Source: a virus
Reading direction: 5' to 3' (one strand)
Length of the DNA: 64,000 bases
Virus record (IMG/VR): IMGVR_UViG_3300032018_000001
Location: 1 to 64,000 of that record
The translations under genes were made by a program, and so were the position numbers. Of the stretch, positions 3,582 to 46,197 are shown piece by piece. The notes below the pieces were generated by a model. That model did no database searches. It was given only the letters and a program-made list of their open reading frames with translations, and was not told the origin of the DNA. Every line of letters begins with the position of its first letter. The first letter of the stretch is position 1.

Positions 3582-3826
3582 TGGCTATGGCTATGCGTGT
3601 CGATGACGATGATGACAAAAAAGCTACTCCAGAGAACAGACTGATAATGCCATTCGGGCAGCATAAAGGTCTTGACATAGAGGACGTGCCCGATGACTAT
3701 TTGTATTACATTTCATGCCAGGACTGGATTACCAAGTGGCCTGCGGTGCATGCTTACATTAAGAAAAATATAAACGGCATCAAGAAGAAAGTAGGAGTGG
3801 ACAACCTAAGAGAGGAGCTTGATTAA
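3581..3826 (+). CDS. Small MPFG(K/Q)HKG-motif protein (DUF3820-like)
   Basis: MPFGQHKGLDIEDVPDDYL. Confidence 0.7.
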   Translation: MAMAMRVDDDDDKKATPENRLIMPFGQHKGLDIEDVPDDYLYYISCQDWITKWPAVHAYIKKNINGIKKKVGVDNLREELD

Positions 3827-4323
3827 TGGCTAACTTAACCAAGAAAAACATGAGCGCTGCCAAGTTTATTCATGATGGCGTTAAGAAGGACTTGGACAGA
3901 CGGCACGGGTCTAAGTTTGGATTTCAGAATGTGTCCTACGACAACTGGGCCAAAATGTTTCCAGGGCCTGCTGAGGAAAAGCAGGACACCATTGACATCA
4001 TGAAAAAAGCTTACGGGCTTGTCCGCAGAGCTCTGGATTTCAGTTTCAAGACCAGACAGGACGGTGATAATCTTATTGTAGAGGAGGAGCTGAATACAAC
4101 GCAGCTGCATACGCTGCTGCGGGTGTGGTACAAGCAGAAGGAAGTAGGTGCTATTATGATGTCGCGCACACTGGGTATGGATAAATCTTTTGGTAGCACA
4201 GAAGCCGTAGACTTGTTGAATGAAATCATAGCGCTCAATGAAGCAGAGCGCAAGTTATTCAGTGAGGAGTATTTCAACTACCGAAAAGCGGCTCTTGAAA
4301 AGTGCAATAAGAGGCTATACTAA
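3826..4323 (+). CDS. Hypothetical protein
   Basis: TAATG-coupled ORF with GAGGAG RBS. Confidence 0.7.
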   Translation: MANLTKKNMSAAKFIHDGVKKDLDRRHGSKFGFQNVSYDNWAKMFPGPAEEKQDTIDIMKKAYGLVRRALDFSFKTRQDGDNLIVEEELNTTQLHTLLRVWYKQKEVGAIMMSRTLGMDKSFGSTEAVDLLNEIIALNEAERKLFSEEYFNYRKAALEKCNKRLY

Positions 4324-28359: not shown

Positions 28360-31300
28360 ATGAAAAGAAATTCTAAATCAGGGGCTGCTAAGGCCACAGT
28401 TTTCTCAGACCCGCACGCAAATAATTTCCAGCGTTTCGCCAAAATCAAAAATGGTTTTAACTCAAGGCTCTTAGATGTAATAAGAGCCTTGCGTTTTATT
28501 AACACCTACAACGAAGAGAATGCTATTGATACTACGCTTCTCTCCGGAGACTTATTCCATACGTTTTCTTTCGTAGAAAATGATGTGATGAATCTTGTCA
28601 ATGAGGTGCTAAGTAACTGGTACGGCCAGCTGTACTACATTGTCGGCCAGCATGACTTGAAAACCAAAGCGGACAAGTACGATGAGCGGCTGGCAAGTTC
28701 TTTGGTATTCAGGAACAACAAAACAATTCACCTATTGCAGGGCGGAATAAAGTATACGCTGCCTAACGGTACTACACTTTTCGGTATGGGCTGGCAAGAC
28801 CCTAAAAATTTCTACGAGCAGGAGTTTGAGTCTGCGGATATTTTCATGGGCCACCAGATGATTGATAATCCGGACATCCCAAAAGGAATGCGACTGCATA
28901 AGGACTGGATTGAAAAGAACGGTTACAAACTGCTAATCTTTGGTGATATTCATAAGCCTGATTTCAGAAAATATGATGGCTACAATGTTTTGATTCCCGG
29001 CGCTCCCCTTCAGCACAATTTTGGTGATGCCGGGCAGGACAGGGGATTCTGGACGGTTGACCTGGATACCTACGATGCTGATTTTATTCCCATCAATACC
29101 ACACCAAAATTTATCAAGGTGCAGAGTGCTGCGGAATTAAAGAGCGGCGATGACTTCAATTTCTACCGGGTAGAAAAGCCCGCGGATGTGGATACTACGG
29201 GAATGAATGTGGCCGTCCGCAAGGAAGTAAAGCAGGCCTTTAGAGAATCCGGGTTATCCGTGGCCATGTCAGACGAAGAGCTTCTGACAAAATATTTGGA
29301 ATTGAAAACTGATAAGAACGAGACCAAGCAGGATGTGTTTTTGCAAACAGGTTTGAAGTATTTGAAAGAGTGCGTGTCATCTGCGGTCACGCCCAAAGAC
29401 TATGTAATAAAAAAGGTGGAGATACACAACTTTGTTTCCATGCTCGGCAAGCACACGTTCACTTTTGTCAAAGACATTTTTCTCATTCTGGGCAGCAACG
29501 GTTTTGGAAAGACAACGCTCTTTGAGGCGCTGTATTGGTGCCTGTTCGGGGTTACTACAAAAGGTTTGGCTGCTGGGGAAGTGGTCAACGATACTGTCAA
29601 CGAAGACTGTAGCGTTATCGTAACGCTGGAAGGAAGCAAGGATACTATTACCGTTCACCGGTACAGGAAGGATAAGGATTTTGGTAATGCTTTCTTTTTC
29701 AATATTTATGCAGGGTCTACTGACGCGCAAGAGCAAGGTAGCGTTTATCAGATTAAGCGTGAGTCCACGGATGCAACGCAGGAAGAGCTTAACCGGATGC
29801 TGGGTACTAATGCCAGCTTCTTTAAGAACGTCAACTATTTCTCACAGGAAGCTTTTGAATTTTTCTCCACGCTCACGGACGCCGGGCAGAAAGCAATCTG
29901 CAAAAATCTTATGCAGATTGACCGCTTTGAAAAGGCGGAAGACAAGGTTAAGTTTGAAGCGGCAATCCTGGACAACAGCTATAGCAAGCAGGAGCAGCAG
30001 CTTTCCAGTGATAAGGCTGTCCTGATTGAGAAGGAGCAGACCTTGAAGAGTCTCAGGTCTCAGGAGATTATCTGGGAAAGCCAGCACAAAGAGGATTTGG
30101 TTAAACGAGCGGAACAGCTGAAGGGCCTACAGGCCCGCTCTGAAAAAATAAATCGTAACATCGAAGTCCTCAGCGCGGAAAAAGAGGACTTGGAAAAACA
30201 GAAGGCAGGAATAGAGCTTGCTATTCCTGTGTACGTTGACGCATACGCGGCCGTGGTCGTTGAATTGACGCAGGCCATTGCTACGGCTGATGGTAATCGC
30301 TCTTCAGGGCGGAAGGAATACTTCGATGAGCTGAAGCGCCTGAACACCAATAAGGAAAAGCTTAACAAAGACCTTTACAGCATAGAGGCTGACCTGTCGC
30401 AGGTCAGTAACCGGCTGGATGAGCTCAAAGAGCAGGTGACGGCCTCTGACAGCGCTCTGTGCTCTTTATGCGGTCAGAAGCTTCCGCCTTTTAAAATATC
30501 TGAGATACGGGAAAGGCTTCAGCAGGAATACTCCCAGAAGACCGCGCTGCTTCCAGGAATGAATAAAACCAAGGAAATCCTGCAGTCGAATATCCAAAAC
30601 ACCGTAGAGCTTATTGCACAGCTGGAAACCAAAAACAATTTTGATAAGCAAGACCAAGCTGTGCGCCTGCTGCAGGCCAGGAAAGACACCGTTACCGTCC
30701 AACAGACCGCGGCTAAGCAGTTGCATGATAATGCAGTCAATCAAGCCAAGCTTGTCTATCAAGAAAAAACACACGAGATGGATACCCAGCTTGTAAATCT
30801 GTCATCGGAGCTGGCTGTGTTGCTCAGGGATAAAGCAACCTGCGAGCACGACTACGGCGCATATCTTCTTGAATTAAAGGCTCAGACAGAGGTTGCCAAT
30901 CCTTTTTCTGTTGAAATAAAAAATCATGAAGCACTGCAAACGCAGATGCGCCTTGGCATAGTAGCCAGAGAAGAAGAACTGCAGCGCCTTTATGCGGAGC
31001 AGGAGATTCATCAATTCTGGCGCGTAGCATTTTCTAACCAAGGCATAATTTCTTACCTGCTAGATAATTTTTCATTGCGTTTTACTATTATAATTAACGA
31101 TATTTTGTTGGATTTAACAGACGGGCATTACTCTTCATTATTATCAACCCAGAAAAAACTGAAAAACAAAGATGAGTACCGAGAACAGTTTGAATTTAAA
31201 ATTTTTATCGATGGCAAGGAGCGGACGTATAAAGCACTGAGTGGAGGACAAAAAGCTAGAATTAATCTTGCTACGGTTGCCACTTTGCACAAGATAATAC

Positions 31301-31530
31301 AAGAACAGTATAACTTAATTGCGATTCCATTTTCTCTTGTGGCGCTAGATGAGCTAATTTCTGAGCTGGATGCCGGTGGAATAGAGGCAATGAGTTCTTT
31401 GATTAGCGGTATGGCCAAAGATTGTGCAGTTTACGTGATAACACACCTGGATAATTTTAAAAACTTGTTTTCTAATCATGTTACTGTGGACTACACAAAA
31501 GAAAAAGGTACAATAATAGCGTATGTTTAA
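28360..31530 (+). CDS. Mre11-Rad50 (SbcD-SbcC) fusion nuclease/ATPase
   Basis: SDPH, SGDLFH, GQHD, GDIH; GSNGFGKTT; zinc hook CSLCGQ; LSGGQ; VALDE; ITH. Confidence 0.9.
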   Translation: MKRNSKSGAAKATVFSDPHANNFQRFAKIKNGFNSRLLDVIRALRFINTYNEENAIDTTLLSGDLFHTFSFVENDVMNLVNEVLSNWYGQLYYIVGQHDLKTKADKYDERLASSLVFRNNKTIHLLQGGIKYTLPNGTTLFGMGWQDPKNFYEQEFESADIFMGHQMIDNPDIPKGMRLHKDWIEKNGYKLLIFGDIHKPDFRKYDGYNVLIPGAPLQHNFGDAGQDRGFWTVDLDTYDADFIPINTTPKFIKVQSAAELKSGDDFNFYRVEKPADVDTTGMNVAVRKEVKQAFRESGLSVAMSDEELLTKYLELKTDKNETKQDVFLQTGLKYLKECVSSAVTPKDYVIKKVEIHNFVSMLGKHTFTFVKDIFLILGSNGFGKTTLFEALYWCLFGVTTKGLAAGEVVNDTVNEDCSVIVTLEGSKDTITVHRYRKDKDFGNAFFFNIYAGSTDAQEQGSVYQIKRESTDATQEELNRMLGTNASFFKNVNYFSQEAFEFFSTLTDAGQKAICKNLMQIDRFEKAEDKVKFEAAILDNSYSKQEQQLSSDKAVLIEKEQTLKSLRSQEIIWESQHKEDLVKRAEQLKGLQARSEKINRNIEVLSAEKEDLEKQKAGIELAIPVYVDAYAAVVVELTQAIATADGNRSSGRKEYFDELKRLNTNKEKLNKDLYSIEADLSQVSNRLDELKEQVTASDSALCSLCGQKLPPFKISEIRERLQQEYSQKTALLPGMNKTKEILQSNIQNTVELIAQLETKNNFDKQDQAVRLLQARKDTVTVQQTAAKQLHDNAVNQAKLVYQEKTHEMDTQLVNLSSELAVLLRDKATCEHDYGAYLLELKAQTEVANPFSVEIKNHEALQTQMRLGIVAREEELQRLYAEQEIHQFWRVAFSNQGIISYLLDNFSLRFTIIINDILLDLTDGHYSSLLSTQKKLKNKDEYREQFEFKIFIDGKERTYKALSGGQKARINLATVATLHKIIQEQYNLIAIPFSLVALDELISELDAGGIEAMSSLISGMAKDCAVYVITHLDNFKNLFSNHVTVDYTKEKGTIIAYV

Positions 31531-41867: not shown

Positions 41868-42110
41868 ATGATTATCGCTTTAAAGAGAGTAATTCATACG
41901 CCAGCGTGGTGTGCTAAAATAAGTGCCGCATTAAAAGGTAAGAAGAAATCCCCAGAGCATGCAGCAAAGTGTAGAACATTTAATTTAGGAAAGCATCACA
42001 CGGAGGCCACAAAGAGACACTTATCAAGAGTTATGATGGGAAGATTCGTTAGTTCAGAAACGAAAGAAAAGCAGCGGTATGCTGCTCTTAAAAGAAAGCG
42101 TTGTGCTTAA
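41868..42110 (+). CDS. NUMOD3-repeat DNA-binding protein (homing endonuclease remnant)
   Basis: HTPAWCAKISAALKGKKKSPEH; GKHHTEATKRHLS; SSETKEKQR. Confidence 0.75.
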   Translation: MIIALKRVIHTPAWCAKISAALKGKKKSPEHAAKCRTFNLGKHHTEATKRHLSRVMMGRFVSSETKEKQRYAALKRKRCA

Positions 42111-42132
42111 TAATATTTATGGGAGGATTACT

Positions 42133-43455
42133 GTGAAAAAATTGGCAATACTTACTGATTTCGTTGGTTACTTGGAATCCTACTCAATCGCGCAGATTGT
42201 TAGGCAGCAGATGCGGATGCTGAAGCAGAACGGTTACAAGTTCAGATTCATTCAGCGGACAACTGACATTGCAGAATGGGAAAAATATACCGATGATATT
42301 TGTGTCATTCCCGATTACATCTGCGGCAACCGCGGAGAAACAGAGGACATTCTTAAGCGCACTGGAAAAAGCTGGGCGGAGCTGGTAAAAGAAACCTATG
42401 ATGCCCTGGAGCTTCACCTGAAGGATATGGACATTGTGATTACGCATGACCTTATTTATCAGTCCTGCGATAATATTCAGGATGAGGCGGCAGCGCTTTA
42501 TGCAAAAAATCATCCTAATGTTTTATGGTTGCATTGGGTACACTCTGCTTCTAACCCGGCCGGGCTTAACAAGCAGGTAGGAAAAAACGTGTATGCAAAT
42601 TCTTTTGTCATATACCCTAACCAACGTGATATTTTCAAGGTTGTTGCTAATCTTAAAGTTCCGCCTGAGAAGGTCAAGGTTGTTCCGCATGCTATGGATT
42701 ACGTTGACTTCTTCGACATGCATCCTATCACGGAAAAAATAATAGAGTCCACCGGAATCATGGAAGCAGATGTAGTATGCTGCTATCCGCTGCGCCTGGA
42801 CAGAGGAAAGCAACCCGAATTCTGCATCAAGATTATGAATCAGATACGTGACCATTTCAAACGCAAGATTCAGTTGGTCTTTGTTGACTTCCAATCCACA
42901 GGCGGCGATAAGGTAAACTACCGGGAAGAGCTTATAGCAATGGCTGCTTCCTATGGCTGGCAGGATGATGAGCTCATTTTCATGTCCCAGTTTCATCCGG
43001 ACTGTTTCATGCAGACTCCCAAAAAAGTTATTCGGGATTTGTTCCTGTTGTCAAATGTTTACATTCACCCCAGCAAAAGCGAAACGTACTCATTGACAAC
43101 GCAGGAAGCGCGGGCCTGCAAAAACATGCTAGTGTTGAATTTCGATTTCCCGGCAATGAGGGCTATGTACGGGGAAGACCCTATTTACCGTAAGTTCAGC
43201 TCCAATACTTGCATTGTGGAGGATAACCCTAACCCGAATACAGCAACACAGACCGGTTACGTTCGGGGTGTTGATAATTACTGCATGGAGATAGCCGGGA
43301 GAATTTTATATTATCTTGATAAGCAGGCTGTGGTTAAGATGTCTGATGAAACAAGAAAAAATAAAAACCTGCAAACGGTTTTTAAGCGTCATATAGAACC
43401 TTTACTTTTTGGTGCCAAAGATGATAATCAGCAAGCCCCCCAGCAAGGCGTATGA
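42133..43455 (+). CDS. GT4-like (GT-B) glycosyltransferase
   Basis: ITHD, HWVHS, RLDRGK, IHPSKSETYSLTTQEA; GGGAGG RBS with GTG start. Confidence 0.8.
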   Translation: MKKLAILTDFVGYLESYSIAQIVRQQMRMLKQNGYKFRFIQRTTDIAEWEKYTDDICVIPDYICGNRGETEDILKRTGKSWAELVKETYDALELHLKDMDIVITHDLIYQSCDNIQDEAAALYAKNHPNVLWLHWVHSASNPAGLNKQVGKNVYANSFVIYPNQRDIFKVVANLKVPPEKVKVVPHAMDYVDFFDMHPITEKIIESTGIMEADVVCCYPLRLDRGKQPEFCIKIMNQIRDHFKRKIQLVFVDFQSTGGDKVNYREELIAMAASYGWQDDELIFMSQFHPDCFMQTPKKVIRDLFLLSNVYIHPSKSETYSLTTQEARACKNMLVLNFDFPAMRAMYGEDPIYRKFSSNTCIVEDNPNPNTATQTGYVRGVDNYCMEIAGRILYYLDKQAVVKMSDETRKNKNLQTVFKRHIEPLLFGAKDDNQQAPQQGV

Positions 43456-43709
43456 TGAATTCTGTGCGCGAGCTTTTGGTAAACCTGTGGAGCAAACAAA
43501 GCCAGAAGAAAAACCGGCTGCTCCTGAAGAGGAAAACCGTGACCTTCTCAGCGCTCGCATGCGTATTGCACGGGGTGAGCTCAGGCCCCCAGGACGATAA
43601 TGAGTTCAGGAATTGACTTTGGGTTTTTTATAGATAGGATGTCGGTAGCCGCGGAAGAGGCAAAAGTTCTTAGTGAACAATCACAAGGATTACTACTGAC
43701 TGCGCTTTG

Positions 43710-44181
43710 TTGTAAGCAATAACATTTTGCCGCAAGGCAAAGAAACGCATGTTTCACATTCGGAGGAAAAGATGAAAGCAAAAAGTCAGAAGAAATCGCC
43801 CCTATCTTGCAAGCTCCGTGGCGATAAAGTTGTAATCGAAATTGGAATTGATACGCTTGCCTTTGCTTTTGAAGAAAGCGAATACAATAATCCTTTTGAT
43901 GTTACCCAAAACAAACACGTTCGCACAGACACCATCGCTTTCAAAAAAGAGTTTGCCAGGGATGTCGTAAACGAAATCAACGATGAAGAGGAAGACGGCT
44001 CAACTTTGCTTACTGGGCTATTTGACAAGGCAACAGAAAGAGCCGTTGAAAACGGAAGTCTTGGAATCAGAGAAATTTAAGAGCGCAAAATGTTAAAGCA
44101 CACAACAATCGTATGGGGTTTCGTAGCCAAGGCTACTCAAGGCAAATTGCCTGCTGGCAACAACTTCCCCATACTTTCCCG
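43710..44181 (+). mobile_element. Integron-type gene cassette (472 bp) with attC-like site at 44098-44187
   Basis: G|TTGTAAGC left junction; GCACACAAC-aatc-GTATGGGG..CCCCATAC-tttccc-G|TT right end. Confidence 0.65.
43772..44080 (+). CDS. Cassette-borne hypothetical protein
   Basis: GGAGG RBS; VIEIGIDTLAFA..FARDVVNEI..EEEDGST. Confidence 0.75.
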   Translation: MKAKSQKKSPLSCKLRGDKVVIEIGIDTLAFAFEESEYNNPFDVTQNKHVRTDTIAFKKEFARDVVNEINDEEEDGSTLLTGLFDKATERAVENGSLGIREI

Positions 44182-44240
44182 TTCTATGGAGCGAACAGAG
44201 GCTGTCAGGGAAAAATACTGTCTTCATTAAAGGAGTGTGT

Positions 44241-44543
44241 ATGGCAAGCATGGCGGATATTCAGTCTGATTGTCACGGTGCTTCTGTGATGTCCATAGCA
44301 GGTAAGAGCTCCTGTTACTACAGGTGCATTAATTGCGGAAAAGAATGTACGGTACGGGCAGCAGCTCCTCAGGTAAAGACTCCCGCAGATGCTGTGATTG
44401 ATGAATTCTGTTTGAAGATTGAAAAGGAAATGGAATCTCCTGCCCAGGAGCTGCGGGAAGCAGAGAGGCTTAAGTTTGTGACGGACAGCCTAGAAGAGGG
44501 AAAGTTTATCGAGCGAAAACCTTTTGTAGCAGTGGAGGCTTAG
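44241..44543 (+). CDS. Hypothetical protein with Cys motif
   Basis: SDCHGA..YRCINCGKEC; AAGGAG RBS. Confidence 0.65.
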   Translation: MASMADIQSDCHGASVMSIAGKSSCYYRCINCGKECTVRAAAPQVKTPADAVIDEFCLKIEKEMESPAQELREAERLKFVTDSLEEGKFIERKPFVAVEA

Positions 44544-44544
44544 C

Positions 44545-45027
44545 ATGCAAAAAGAAGAAGTCCTTTCATTTCCTGCTTACGGAAAAAATGTAGACCTTCA
44601 CGCTTACTACTACTATTCCAGAAAAAGTGCTGCACAAAAAGCCGAGGTTTGCAATGGTGCCGGGCCGCGCCGTTTCGGTTGGCTGATACCGGATACCTTC
44701 TGCGGCCTTTGCATTACAGAGCCCGCCAATATCCATGATTGGAATTACCAGTTCGGAGAGACCATTGAGGATTTCCATGAAGCAAACAGAAATTTCAAAT
44801 GGAATATGCTACGCATGGCAGAGGCTCTGCGAGAAAAAGAAGCAGCAGCTAATCCTGGATGGCTACGGCGCAAGTGGAATGAATACATGCATACCCGGCG
44901 CTGTGAAATCATTGAGGATGAATATTACAAAGCCGTGGAAGCTTTCGGAGGGGCTATCTTCTTCAAGAAAGACCCTATCAGTTTTACGTGGCAATCTCTT
45001 GCTCCCGTGGGAGGTGCTATTGTATAA
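44545..45027 (+). CDS. Phage protein with CNG..HD motif (prokaryotic PLA2/DUF1353-like)
   Basis: CNGAGP, IPDT, ANIHDWNY, AN..F..NM, YYKAV..FG. Confidence 0.6.
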   Translation: MQKEEVLSFPAYGKNVDLHAYYYYSRKSAAQKAEVCNGAGPRRFGWLIPDTFCGLCITEPANIHDWNYQFGETIEDFHEANRNFKWNMLRMAEALREKEAAANPGWLRRKWNEYMHTRRCEIIEDEYYKAVEAFGGAIFFKKDPISFTWQSLAPVGGAIV

Positions 45028-45130
45028 CGCCTACTGTATTGCCATTATTATAGTCTCCGCTGCTGTAGCAATCATTTCCCTTAGGGAAAAGCGCGAAGAC
45101 TTTTAACCGATAAATTTACACTATACAACT

Positions 45131-45162
45131 AAGACCCCATCCTCTAAGAGGGTGGGGTTTTT
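45131..45162 (+). terminator. Rho-independent terminator
   Basis: GACCCCATCCTC-taa-GAGGGTGGGGTTTTT. Confidence 0.85.
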
Positions 45163-45234
45163 GGCGTTATATCTAATTTTTATATTATCTATGCAAGAAG
45201 ATACTACACAACAAACCGCTGCACTTGAGGCGAT

Positions 45235-45639
45235 ATGTCTGAAACTGACAACAAATTCATTGACCGGCTTATTGATTTGGTTAAGGAAGTCACAGAATCA
45301 AATGTAGCGCAAACACAAAGTATTGAGGCACTTGAGACAAAAGTTACGGAAGACATAAGTAATGCAGAAGGAAATATCCTTGAGGCTACAGGCTCACTGT
45401 CTGATAGGATAACCGCGCTGGAAGAAAAGAATACCTGCTTTTATGGCTCAGAAGAATTCAAACCTGTTAGAGAAAACATCAAAAAACTTTTTACTGAAGA
45501 AGCGTATGACATACTTACGCTGGTGAAGAATGTAAAAAAGTTTGTTAGCTTCGTGTCAATACTATTTATCATTCTATCGGCTATTCTGGTGGTAGCAGGT
45601 GCATTTTCCTTATTGCGCGTTCTTTTTAAAGGAGCATAG
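45235..45639 (+). CDS. Coiled-coil protein with C-terminal transmembrane helix
   Basis: Heptad pattern; FVSFVSILFIILSAILVVAGAF. Confidence 0.7.
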   Translation: MSETDNKFIDRLIDLVKEVTESNVAQTQSIEALETKVTEDISNAEGNILEATGSLSDRITALEEKNTCFYGSEEFKPVRENIKKLFTEEAYDILTLVKNVKKFVSFVSILFIILSAILVVAGAFSLLRVLFKGA

Positions 45640-45640
45640 T

Positions 45641-45841
45641 ATGTCACCTACAGAAAAGAAGTTCAGTGAGAGTGTTGCACACGGCATTCAGGCCATAAAA
45701 AATAATACAGAGCGCATGCAGCGGATGCGTGTGACTCTGGAGGACAGAAGGGCCAGCCTCTTTTCTTCCAATGTTGAAAAATTCAGCAGGATAACACAGC
45801 GCACATTCATGGAAGCAAAAACCTGTCTGGATAAACTATGA
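45641..45841 (+). CDS. Small hypothetical protein
   Basis: AAGGAG RBS. Confidence 0.55.
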   Translation: MSPTEKKFSESVAHGIQAIKNNTERMQRMRVTLEDRRASLFSSNVEKFSRITQRTFMEAKTCLDKL

Positions 45842-46197
45842 GTTTTGTAAAGATAGAAGACAGTTGCGCTATTCTTAGATTTTCCAATACCAGCACACCT
45901 GAGCACCGTGATGTTCTCATGGATGTAAGTGCTCTAATGCAGTTTGGTTTTAAGTGTTTCATTTTCGACTTTTCAGGAGTCAAAAATTTTAGTTCCAGTG
46001 TTTTAGGTTTTGCTCTTGGCTTGATTCGCGTTGTAAAAGGAAACGGCTGTAAGATGTATGTCAGAAATCTCAGCGAAGAGGCCCGGACAATGCTTCAATT
46101 CTCTGTCAAGGTAGAATGCTGCAATGATGAATTGCACGAGCTGCTATCCTTGGAAAATATTCAGAGCATTGAATTAGGAGGAAGCGATGGCCATTGA
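45838..46197 (+). CDS. STAS-domain (anti-sigma antagonist-like) protein
   Basis: FIFDFSGVKNFSSSVLGFAL..G.KM..NLSEE.R.ML. Confidence 0.7.
   Translation: MSFVKIEDSCAILRFSNTSTPEHRDVLMDVSALMQFGFKCFIFDFSGVKNFSSSVLGFALGLIRVVKGNGCKMYVRNLSEEARTMLQFSVKVECCNDELHELLSLENIQSIELGGSDGH

Follow-up and report, generated by a model that had tools for sequence, protein, structure and literature searches.

Single attC sites that lack an integron integrase, termed SALINs, are formed by recombination of attC with attG, the target being a GWT triplet (10.1101/2022.09.11.507474). CALINs and attC sites have been reported in both temperate and virulent phages, where the sites are substrates of IntI1 and the cargo includes methyltransferases (PMC9892861). 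Arrays of attC sites are also found in Archaea (10.1101/2022.02.06.479319). Classical attC sites are 57-141 nt long and are characterized by extrahelical bases; at some sites, recombination of the bottom strand is little affected when they are deleted (PMC5027507). The locus described here lies in the window, the first 64 kb of a virus record of 141,806 bp that has direct terminal repeats and is rated complete. A gene cassette of 472 bp is inserted there at positions 43710-44181 (+ strand), its placement being ambiguous by the three shared bases GTT. We consider it quite likely that this is an integron-type cassette (SALIN) put into a phage gene by a host-encoded integron-type tyrosine recombinase. 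The phage that carries it is probably virulent.

The element shares with the SALINs of Loot et al. a lone cassette, the absence of an integrase or att site nearby, a short G-W-T target (here GTT) in double-stranded DNA and a precise junction. However, those insertions were obtained experimentally in a bacterial chromosome, whereas the present one is a natural event in a phage genome for which an empty-site allele is available (10.1101/2022.09.11.507474). The phage CALINs of Qi et al. 2023 are likewise cassettes bounded by attC sites and lacking an integrase, and their DNA methyltransferase cargo has a counterpart in a Dam cassette of one of the arrays described below (L006). Their arrays, detected with IntegronFinder, come from cultured phages and lack a documented empty site, whereas the present phage combines a solo cassette inside a gene with an array, and its sites are common to unrelated uncultured phages and to sediment cells (PMC9892861). 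With the cassettes of sedentary chromosomal integrons of environmental Bacteria and Archaea of Ghaly et al. 2022, the locus shares the order of elements (R'' ending in AAC, spacer, L box, a branched part with a CCCAAAT(T)TGC...GCAAACTTC hairpin, spacer and GTT) and the small ORFs in one orientation, a likeness that concerns architecture; the phage copies have a higher G+C content and tend to begin with GTTG (10.1101/2022.02.06.479319). A preliminary description of the locus had called the acquisition of genes by this route little described. Considering that both CALINs in virulent phages (PMC9892861) and insertion outside att sites (10.1101/2022.09.11.507474) have been published, this was overstated.

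The cassette separates the two parts of a small gene. The 5' part (43600-43709, +; 36 codons and 2 nt) begins with an ATG that overlaps the stop of the preceding ORF, and the 3' part (44182-44230, +; 1 nt, 15 codons and TAA) is separated by 10 nt from the ATG at 44241 with which the next gene begins. Excision at the G/TT crossovers (the slash marks the point of exchange) had been predicted to restore a single ORF, and the two parts do join into 159 nt encoding 52 aa. A search of a large protein collection with this joined ORF retrieved two full-length proteins of exactly 52 aa, P0009 (92% identity) and P0010 (87%), both from uninterrupted genes of metagenomic relatives. P0009 is encoded on a syntenic 7.7-kb contig, on which the order of genes (337 aa, ..., 440, 52, 107, 160, 134, 66 and 119 aa, followed by a long tail-fibre gene) mirrors that of the window at 40.7-50 kb and the 52-aa gene also stops 10 nt before the next gene. 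P0010 sits on contig L007, which supplied the empty allele whose search in related phages had been suggested, with the site TGTG/TTCTATGGAGCG. The DNA of L007, ...CTGACAGCATTGTG/TTCTATGGAGCGG..., equals the flanks of the window joined at a single GTT; for the right-flank stretch it reads ...CTGACAGCATTGTG/TTCTATGGAGCGGACAGAGG..., the left flank running up to G43709 and the right flank from T44182 on. The occupied allele has GTT at both junctions (43709-43711 on the left, with crossover G/TT, and again at 44181-44183), the empty allele only once, and this fits the GWT target of IntI1 insertion outside att sites (10.1101/2022.09.11.507474). Judged by the alignment of the two alleles, the insertion is precise. 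The broken 52-aa gene is evidently dispensable.

In its present state, the frame that starts at 43600 includes the first four codons of cassette sequence, meets a stop at 43720-43722 and encodes 40 aa. A further ORF of 46 aa (44090-44230, +) starts after the stop of the cargo gene, reads through attC and ends in the last 15 codons of the old gene. No homologue of it was found; a chimeric product is possible, but the ORF is not necessarily a genuine gene. When metagenomes were scanned with the right-flank pattern, the only match was a chance one within an unrelated gene. Among contigs of four sediment runs matching positions 43000-44900, none crossed the cassette, either as an empty allele or as a circle, and contigs drop rare variants.

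The attC-type site as a whole occupies 44098-44183 (+). It consists of R'' (GCACACAAC, 44098-44106), a first spacer AATC (44107-44110), L'' (GTATGGGG, 44111-44118), a variable part of 48 nt with two hairpins (44119-44166), L' (CCCCATAC, 44167-44174), a second spacer TTTCCC (44175-44180) and the right junction G/TT (44181-44183). The L box is thus 8 bp long and is flanked by spacers of 4 and 6 nt, and the same layout of R and L boxes and spacers was recognized in 14 phage sites. At the left junction (G43709/TTGTAAGC), the cassette begins with the left arm of a closing stem (43709-43730, +), composed of R' (GTTGTAAGC), two unpaired nucleotides AA and a cassette-specific distal arm (TAACATTTTGC). 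The right arm (44085-44106, +) comprises the distal arm GCAAAATGTTA and R'' with its CACAAC end. As in attC, the core sites are inverted, with AAC at the end of R'' and GTT at the start of R', and become complementary once the cassette is circular; the crossover falls between the G and the TT of R', as the single GTT of the empty allele indicates. The cassette holds a single promoterless ORF, followed in the same orientation by attC. Its 5' untranslated region contains a small hairpin, TTTGCC-GCAA-GGCAAA (43726-43741, +), and the motif GCAAGGCA occurs at the equivalent place in several other cassettes of the family.

The ORF, R'', spacers, boxes, hairpins and junctions listed in the preliminary description were all found where it had placed them. 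It had also noted complementarity between the left end and R'' over 7 of 9 positions. The complementarity holds, but its extent had been set too short: the core sites GCACACAAC and GTTGTAAGC match at 7/9, this rises to 18/22 when extended, and a 24-nt inverted repeat (43707-43730 against 44085-44108) is 83% complementary. The palindrome folded alone is only weakly better than shuffled sequences (z about -2), so the case for an attC site rests on the whole architecture and on comparisons, and not on the hairpin. A genome-wide chance scan searched for GTT followed by 22 nt, with a reverse-complementary counterpart that ends in AAC, differs at no more than 4 positions and lies 80-3000 nt downstream. 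On the + strand, it detected four sites, namely the solo cassette and three in an array at 74.8-75.7 kb, compared with a mean of 0.2 in 20 shuffled genomes.

No second copy of the region was found in the genome by sequence (blastn-short), and the other cassettes were recognized by a motif search followed by an architecture scan. They form an array of at least four further cassettes at 74.8-76.5 kb, outside the window, with G/TT boundaries at 74783, 75154, 75371 and 75793 and a span of 74783-76520 (L149 783-2520). Their ORFs encode 84, 30, 100 and 80+90 aa, and each unit is built like the window cassette. In the fourth unit, two cassettes seem to have fused at a common TTTAACTAAAC. The first cassette is preceded by a partial, degenerate attC, and the last attC of the array (76433-76525) is followed almost immediately by a GTT. 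Just past the array, a long helix, GGCAGTCTGAGCCGTG ... CACGGCTCAGGCTGC, closes a stretch rich in G+C at 76640-76830 (L149 2640-2830); the gene behind this stretch has the start region AAAGGAGTGTGTATGG, the same as the gene that follows the solo cassette (44230-44245), and the two proteins are dissimilar.

Further arrays of phage cassettes were found on contigs L006, L004, L010 and L011, so that similar palindromes do flank other cassette genes, in the same genome, in other phages and in the arrays of bacterial and archaeal metagenome-assembled genomes (MAGs) described below. The four-cassette array of L006/L002 has a canonical core pair, GCCTAAC/GTTAGGC. A search with the conserved pattern of the second hairpin located two arrays in complete or near-complete phages of 60 kb, G001 and G002. 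These two phages are related to each other, each has only one gene in common with the present phage, and no gene is common to all three. In run X1, the probable source sample, a contig of 352 bases matching window positions 44132-44183 carries a near-copy of the attC joined to GTTGTAAGCAATTAAACCGTGCC..., a different cassette. The depth of this contig is about a tenth of that of the phage, and it shows the attC in an array context within the same community. Close copies of the cassette occur in other contexts in three other sediment metagenomes. Three unrelated cassettes, located at 9316 in L006, at 1174 in L010 (reverse strand) and on a minor contig of run X1, have left ends that share all of the first 14 nt of the solo cassette, GTTGTAAGCAATAA (43709-43722). 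The R'' of the solo cassette, GCACACAAC, predicts GTTGTGTGC as the left end, unlike the actual GTTGTAAGCAATAA. This discrepancy may reflect two substitutions or an exchange to the right of G/TT.

The cargo ORF (43772-44080, +) encodes 102 aa and has its own ribosome-binding site (RBS), GGAGG, 7 nt before the ATG. Its product belongs to a phage family and matches only PHROGs of unknown function; no Pfam family was retrieved. The AlphaFold model is a small alpha/beta protein predicted with confidence (pLDDT 76), for which Foldseek gave no match in the PDB; the Atlas yielded nothing usable. At 68%, P0002 is the closest homologue, and it too is a cassette, part of the L006/L002 array, where the neighbouring cassette encodes the Dam-type methyltransferase. 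On the + strand of the solo cassette, we detected no promoter-like or terminator-like site. As the cassette is oriented in the sense direction of the phage operon, the cargo would ride on phage transcription, and it is presumably expressed by read-through. On contig L004, a 61% homologue of the cargo (3660-4060) retains the cassette 5' leader and 8 nt directly behind the stop codon and lacks the palindrome. It looks like a decayed, domesticated cassette, and the same contig carries three intact cassettes.

The preliminary description reported no integrase in the window, and none is encoded in the rest of the genome either. The profiles PF00589 (phage integrase), PF00239 (resolvase), PF01797 (Y1 transposase) and NF040815 (XerA/integron integrase) retrieved nothing from the 141.8-kb genome (G000), NF040815 giving no match even at E values up to 1. 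The genomes of G001 and G002 similarly lack matches to PF00589 and NF040815. A complete integron has intI, attI and Pc beside its cassettes; with no tyrosine recombinase anywhere in this genome, the solo element classifies as a SALIN and the array at 74.8 kb as a CALIN. With three phage genomes devoid of tyrosine recombinases, the enzyme must come from elsewhere, most simply from the host, and it is probably host-encoded.

We scanned one genome per prokaryotic species with the pattern of the phage sites and obtained at least 120 loci. Among the matches listed, at least 40 loci have the architecture of the phage sites, having passed a check for a matching L'' arm, and they belong to MAGs of many phyla, including Patescibacteria, WOR-3, Thermodesulfobacterium, Chitinivibrionales, Bdellovibrionales and many Archaea. 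One Leptospirales MAG has seven cassettes in 8 kb. Some cellular arrays adjoin short Xer-like proteins and not a classical IntI. The array of L032, for example, starts 78 nt from a divergent gene for a recombinase of 287 aa that passes the NCBIfam model NF040815 (site-specific tyrosine recombinase/integron integrase), falls below the cut-off of the IntI model and has a gap at the IntI-specific insert. The L063 MAG, whose sites are the most phage-like among the cellular matches listed, encodes an integron integrase scoring 351 bits (cut-off 265) on another small contig.

A covariance model (R1) was built only from 30 cellular sites, whose collection by pattern biases it towards sites containing that pattern, and it retrieves other phage sites with E values from 1e-14 to 1e-3. 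On the window site, it scores 13.6 bits (E 0.083 in 8 kb), which is weak, yet this is the top match, with the right strand and ends. Gene acquisition by this route had been regarded as a clue to the host. However, when the attC sites and arrays of the phages were compared by blastn with the 120 cellular loci listed, no match emerged; none of these loci is close in sequence, and no host can be assigned in this way.

A closing stem of about 21 bp, formed by the first bases of each cassette with the stretch ending in R'', characterizes the family. It adjoins attC only in the excised circle. We compared the first 24 nt of 18 different phage cassettes with the 24 nt ending in R''...AAC of the same cassette. 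Positions 1-9 and 12-21 are almost always Watson-Crick pairs, each cassette having its own sequence; at positions 1-9, pairing is seen in 16-18 of the 18 cassettes, except for position 8 (12 cassettes). As pairing is kept while the sequences differ, the stem shows covariation. Positions 10-11 are almost always unpaired (GAAAT/GCAAT against ACATC/ACAGC). Cells that are not Watson-Crick would become G.T wobbles in 24 cases if the bottom strand is read and in a single case if the top strand is read, and at the two R-box positions beside the spacer, 22 of 28 are bottom-strand G.T, against 0 on the top strand. When circular junctions were rebuilt in silico, they folded into a single long hairpin made up of the closing stem, the R box, a spacer, the L box and a three-way tip, and in all seven the bottom strand was the more stable one by 1-6 kcal/mol. 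This agrees with the bottom-strand character of attC recombination, and the position of the junction also points to exchange of the bottom strand relative to the ORF. Among the matches listed, 44 cellular cassettes have the closing stem, the mismatch at positions 10-11 and the bottom-strand bias (58 against 9). The stem thus belongs to the family as such and is not peculiar to phages.

In comparison with classical attC sites such as attC aadA7, the R and L boxes, the unpaired central spacer, the bottom-strand bias and the AAC/GTT crossover are shared (PMC5027507). From R'' to R', the sites described here measure 77-148 nt, against 57-141 nt for classical sites, and their spacers are 2-4 and 5-7 nt long, against 5-6 nt on each arm (PMC5027507). 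The spacer between L' and R' exceeds that between R'' and L'' by 2-3 nt. Extrahelical bases on the L'' arm, the classical feature, are absent, the L boxes being perfect helices of 6-9 bp, and strand asymmetry arises instead from the greater length of the L'-R' spacer and from mismatched positions at which the bottom strand alone can form G.T. The closing stem extends at least 10 bp past the R box and includes the conserved 2-nt mismatch. No description of it was found in the attC literature cited here, and the long closing stem appears to be new.

The insertion could have taken place as follows. A circular cassette present in the infected cell, from an integron of the host or from the phage's own array at 74.8-76.5 kb, would fold on its bottom strand into the closing stem, R box, spacer, L box and branched tip. 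A host integron-type tyrosine recombinase would then exchange this strand at A/AC (G/TT on the top strand) with a GTT in the double-stranded phage DNA, in this case within a small non-essential gene, and the junction would be resolved by replication. The proposal that the phage gained a gene through a host integron integrase gains support from the empty alleles, the sister cassettes, the covariation and strand asymmetry of the sites, the absence of a recombinase from the phage and the occurrence of the site family in cells beside tyrosine recombinases; the identity of the enzyme, the single-strand mechanism and the donor are deduced. Counting against it are the lack of extrahelical bases in the L boxes, the limited match of R' and R'' in the window (only 7/9), the R1 score of 13.6 bits, the lack of a cellular array close in sequence and the short Xer-like recombinases that adjoin some cellular arrays in place of a classical IntI.

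The most serious alternative concerns the enzyme. The units might be moved by a non-classical enzyme, either a short Xer/XerA-like recombinase or a hairpin-specific host enzyme, and the family would then be a parallel integron-like system. The 287-aa neighbour of the L032 array, which passes the XerA/integron integrase model but fails the IntI cut-off and lacks the IntI-specific insert, the missing extrahelical bases and a long closing stem not found described for attC would all suit such an enzyme. Nevertheless, the MAG with the most phage-like sites has a full IntI, the G/TT crossover and the layout of R and L boxes are those of attC, and attC sites of phages and Archaea are proven substrates of IntI1 (PMC9892861; 10.1101/2022.02.06.479319). 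We therefore regard a non-classical enzyme as improbable. Less probable still is an ancestral cassette that two relatives lost by precise excision, in which case a loss would be recorded here and not a gain. Only two relatives are known, which leaves room for this reading; however, in the uninterrupted state a conserved 52-aa protein runs across the junction and ends exactly before the next RBS, an ORF that is unlikely to result from an excision scar, and both relatives are empty although they differ from each other. The reading without any mobile element, in which the region has three ordinary small genes (40, 102 and 46 aa) and a chance or regulatory palindrome, draws on the three open, tightly packed ORFs and on the low z score of the lone hairpin (about -2). 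It is refuted by the empty-site allele, and the four matches of the genome scan against 0.2 expected, the homologous cassette in other arrays and the absence of a terminator-like or promoter-like site at the hairpin also speak against it, so that it deserves practically no credence.

Several other kinds of element were considered and rejected. The promoter-plus-stem-loop repeats (PeSL) of T4-type phages act through homologous recombination and, as here, bound small accessory phage ORFs with repeated stem-loops. However, the solo cassette has no promoter-like site, and target and cassette share only GTT, which excludes homologous exchange of the PeSL type. The same lack of + strand terminator-like and promoter-like sites argues against a terminator or a moron. 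A small transposon with terminal inverted repeats (MITE- or MPME-like) does not fit either, as the insertion continues to 44181, past the end of the right repeat arm at 44106-44108, and as each member of the family carries a different ORF, none of them a transposase. An IS200/IS605-type hairpin element was discarded because the Y1 HUH transposase (PF01797) is absent from the genome.

Under the preferred reading, insertion by a host integron-type recombinase, a cassette placed precisely inside a gene that is unbroken in relatives makes this a clear natural case of gene gain by a phage through the integron route. What is new here is an empty site that documents, to the base, a solo cassette within a phage gene, together with a single family of sites common to unrelated integrase-less phages and to cells. 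The occupied and empty alleles provide a clean natural record of cassette entry at a secondary GTT, previously demonstrated only by experiment on bacterial chromosomes. The occurrence of the attC family across three barely related phage lineages and in cells of many phyla supports the participation of phages in the cassette pool, and it would imply that the host has an active integron-type recombinase. Whether these sites amount to an undescribed structural class of attC, defined by the closing stem of about 21 bp and common to Bacteria, Archaea and several unrelated integrase-less sediment phages, is a more tentative proposal, which we find possible but on balance doubtful. If it were true, virulent phages would be regular members of the cassette pool that borrow a host recombinase to gain or swap accessory genes. 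The closing stem with its bottom-strand bias is a candidate structural requirement for cassette integration.

All genes around the cassette locus are on the + strand. Positions 42000-46000 of the window gave no megablast match to cultured phages, a search for viral relatives of the locus through the adjoining glycosyltransferase and 160-aa genes retrieved none, and a scan of the window detected no tRNA genes. In a comparison of helicases, the closest cultured phages (Herelleviridae-like and others) are about 27% identical, which is too distant for host assignment. Elsewhere in the window, positions 28360-31530 encode a protein of 1056 aa that matches both the SbcD-like and the SbcC-like subunits of a palindrome-specific nuclease, which is noteworthy given the long hairpin-forming sites in the same phage.
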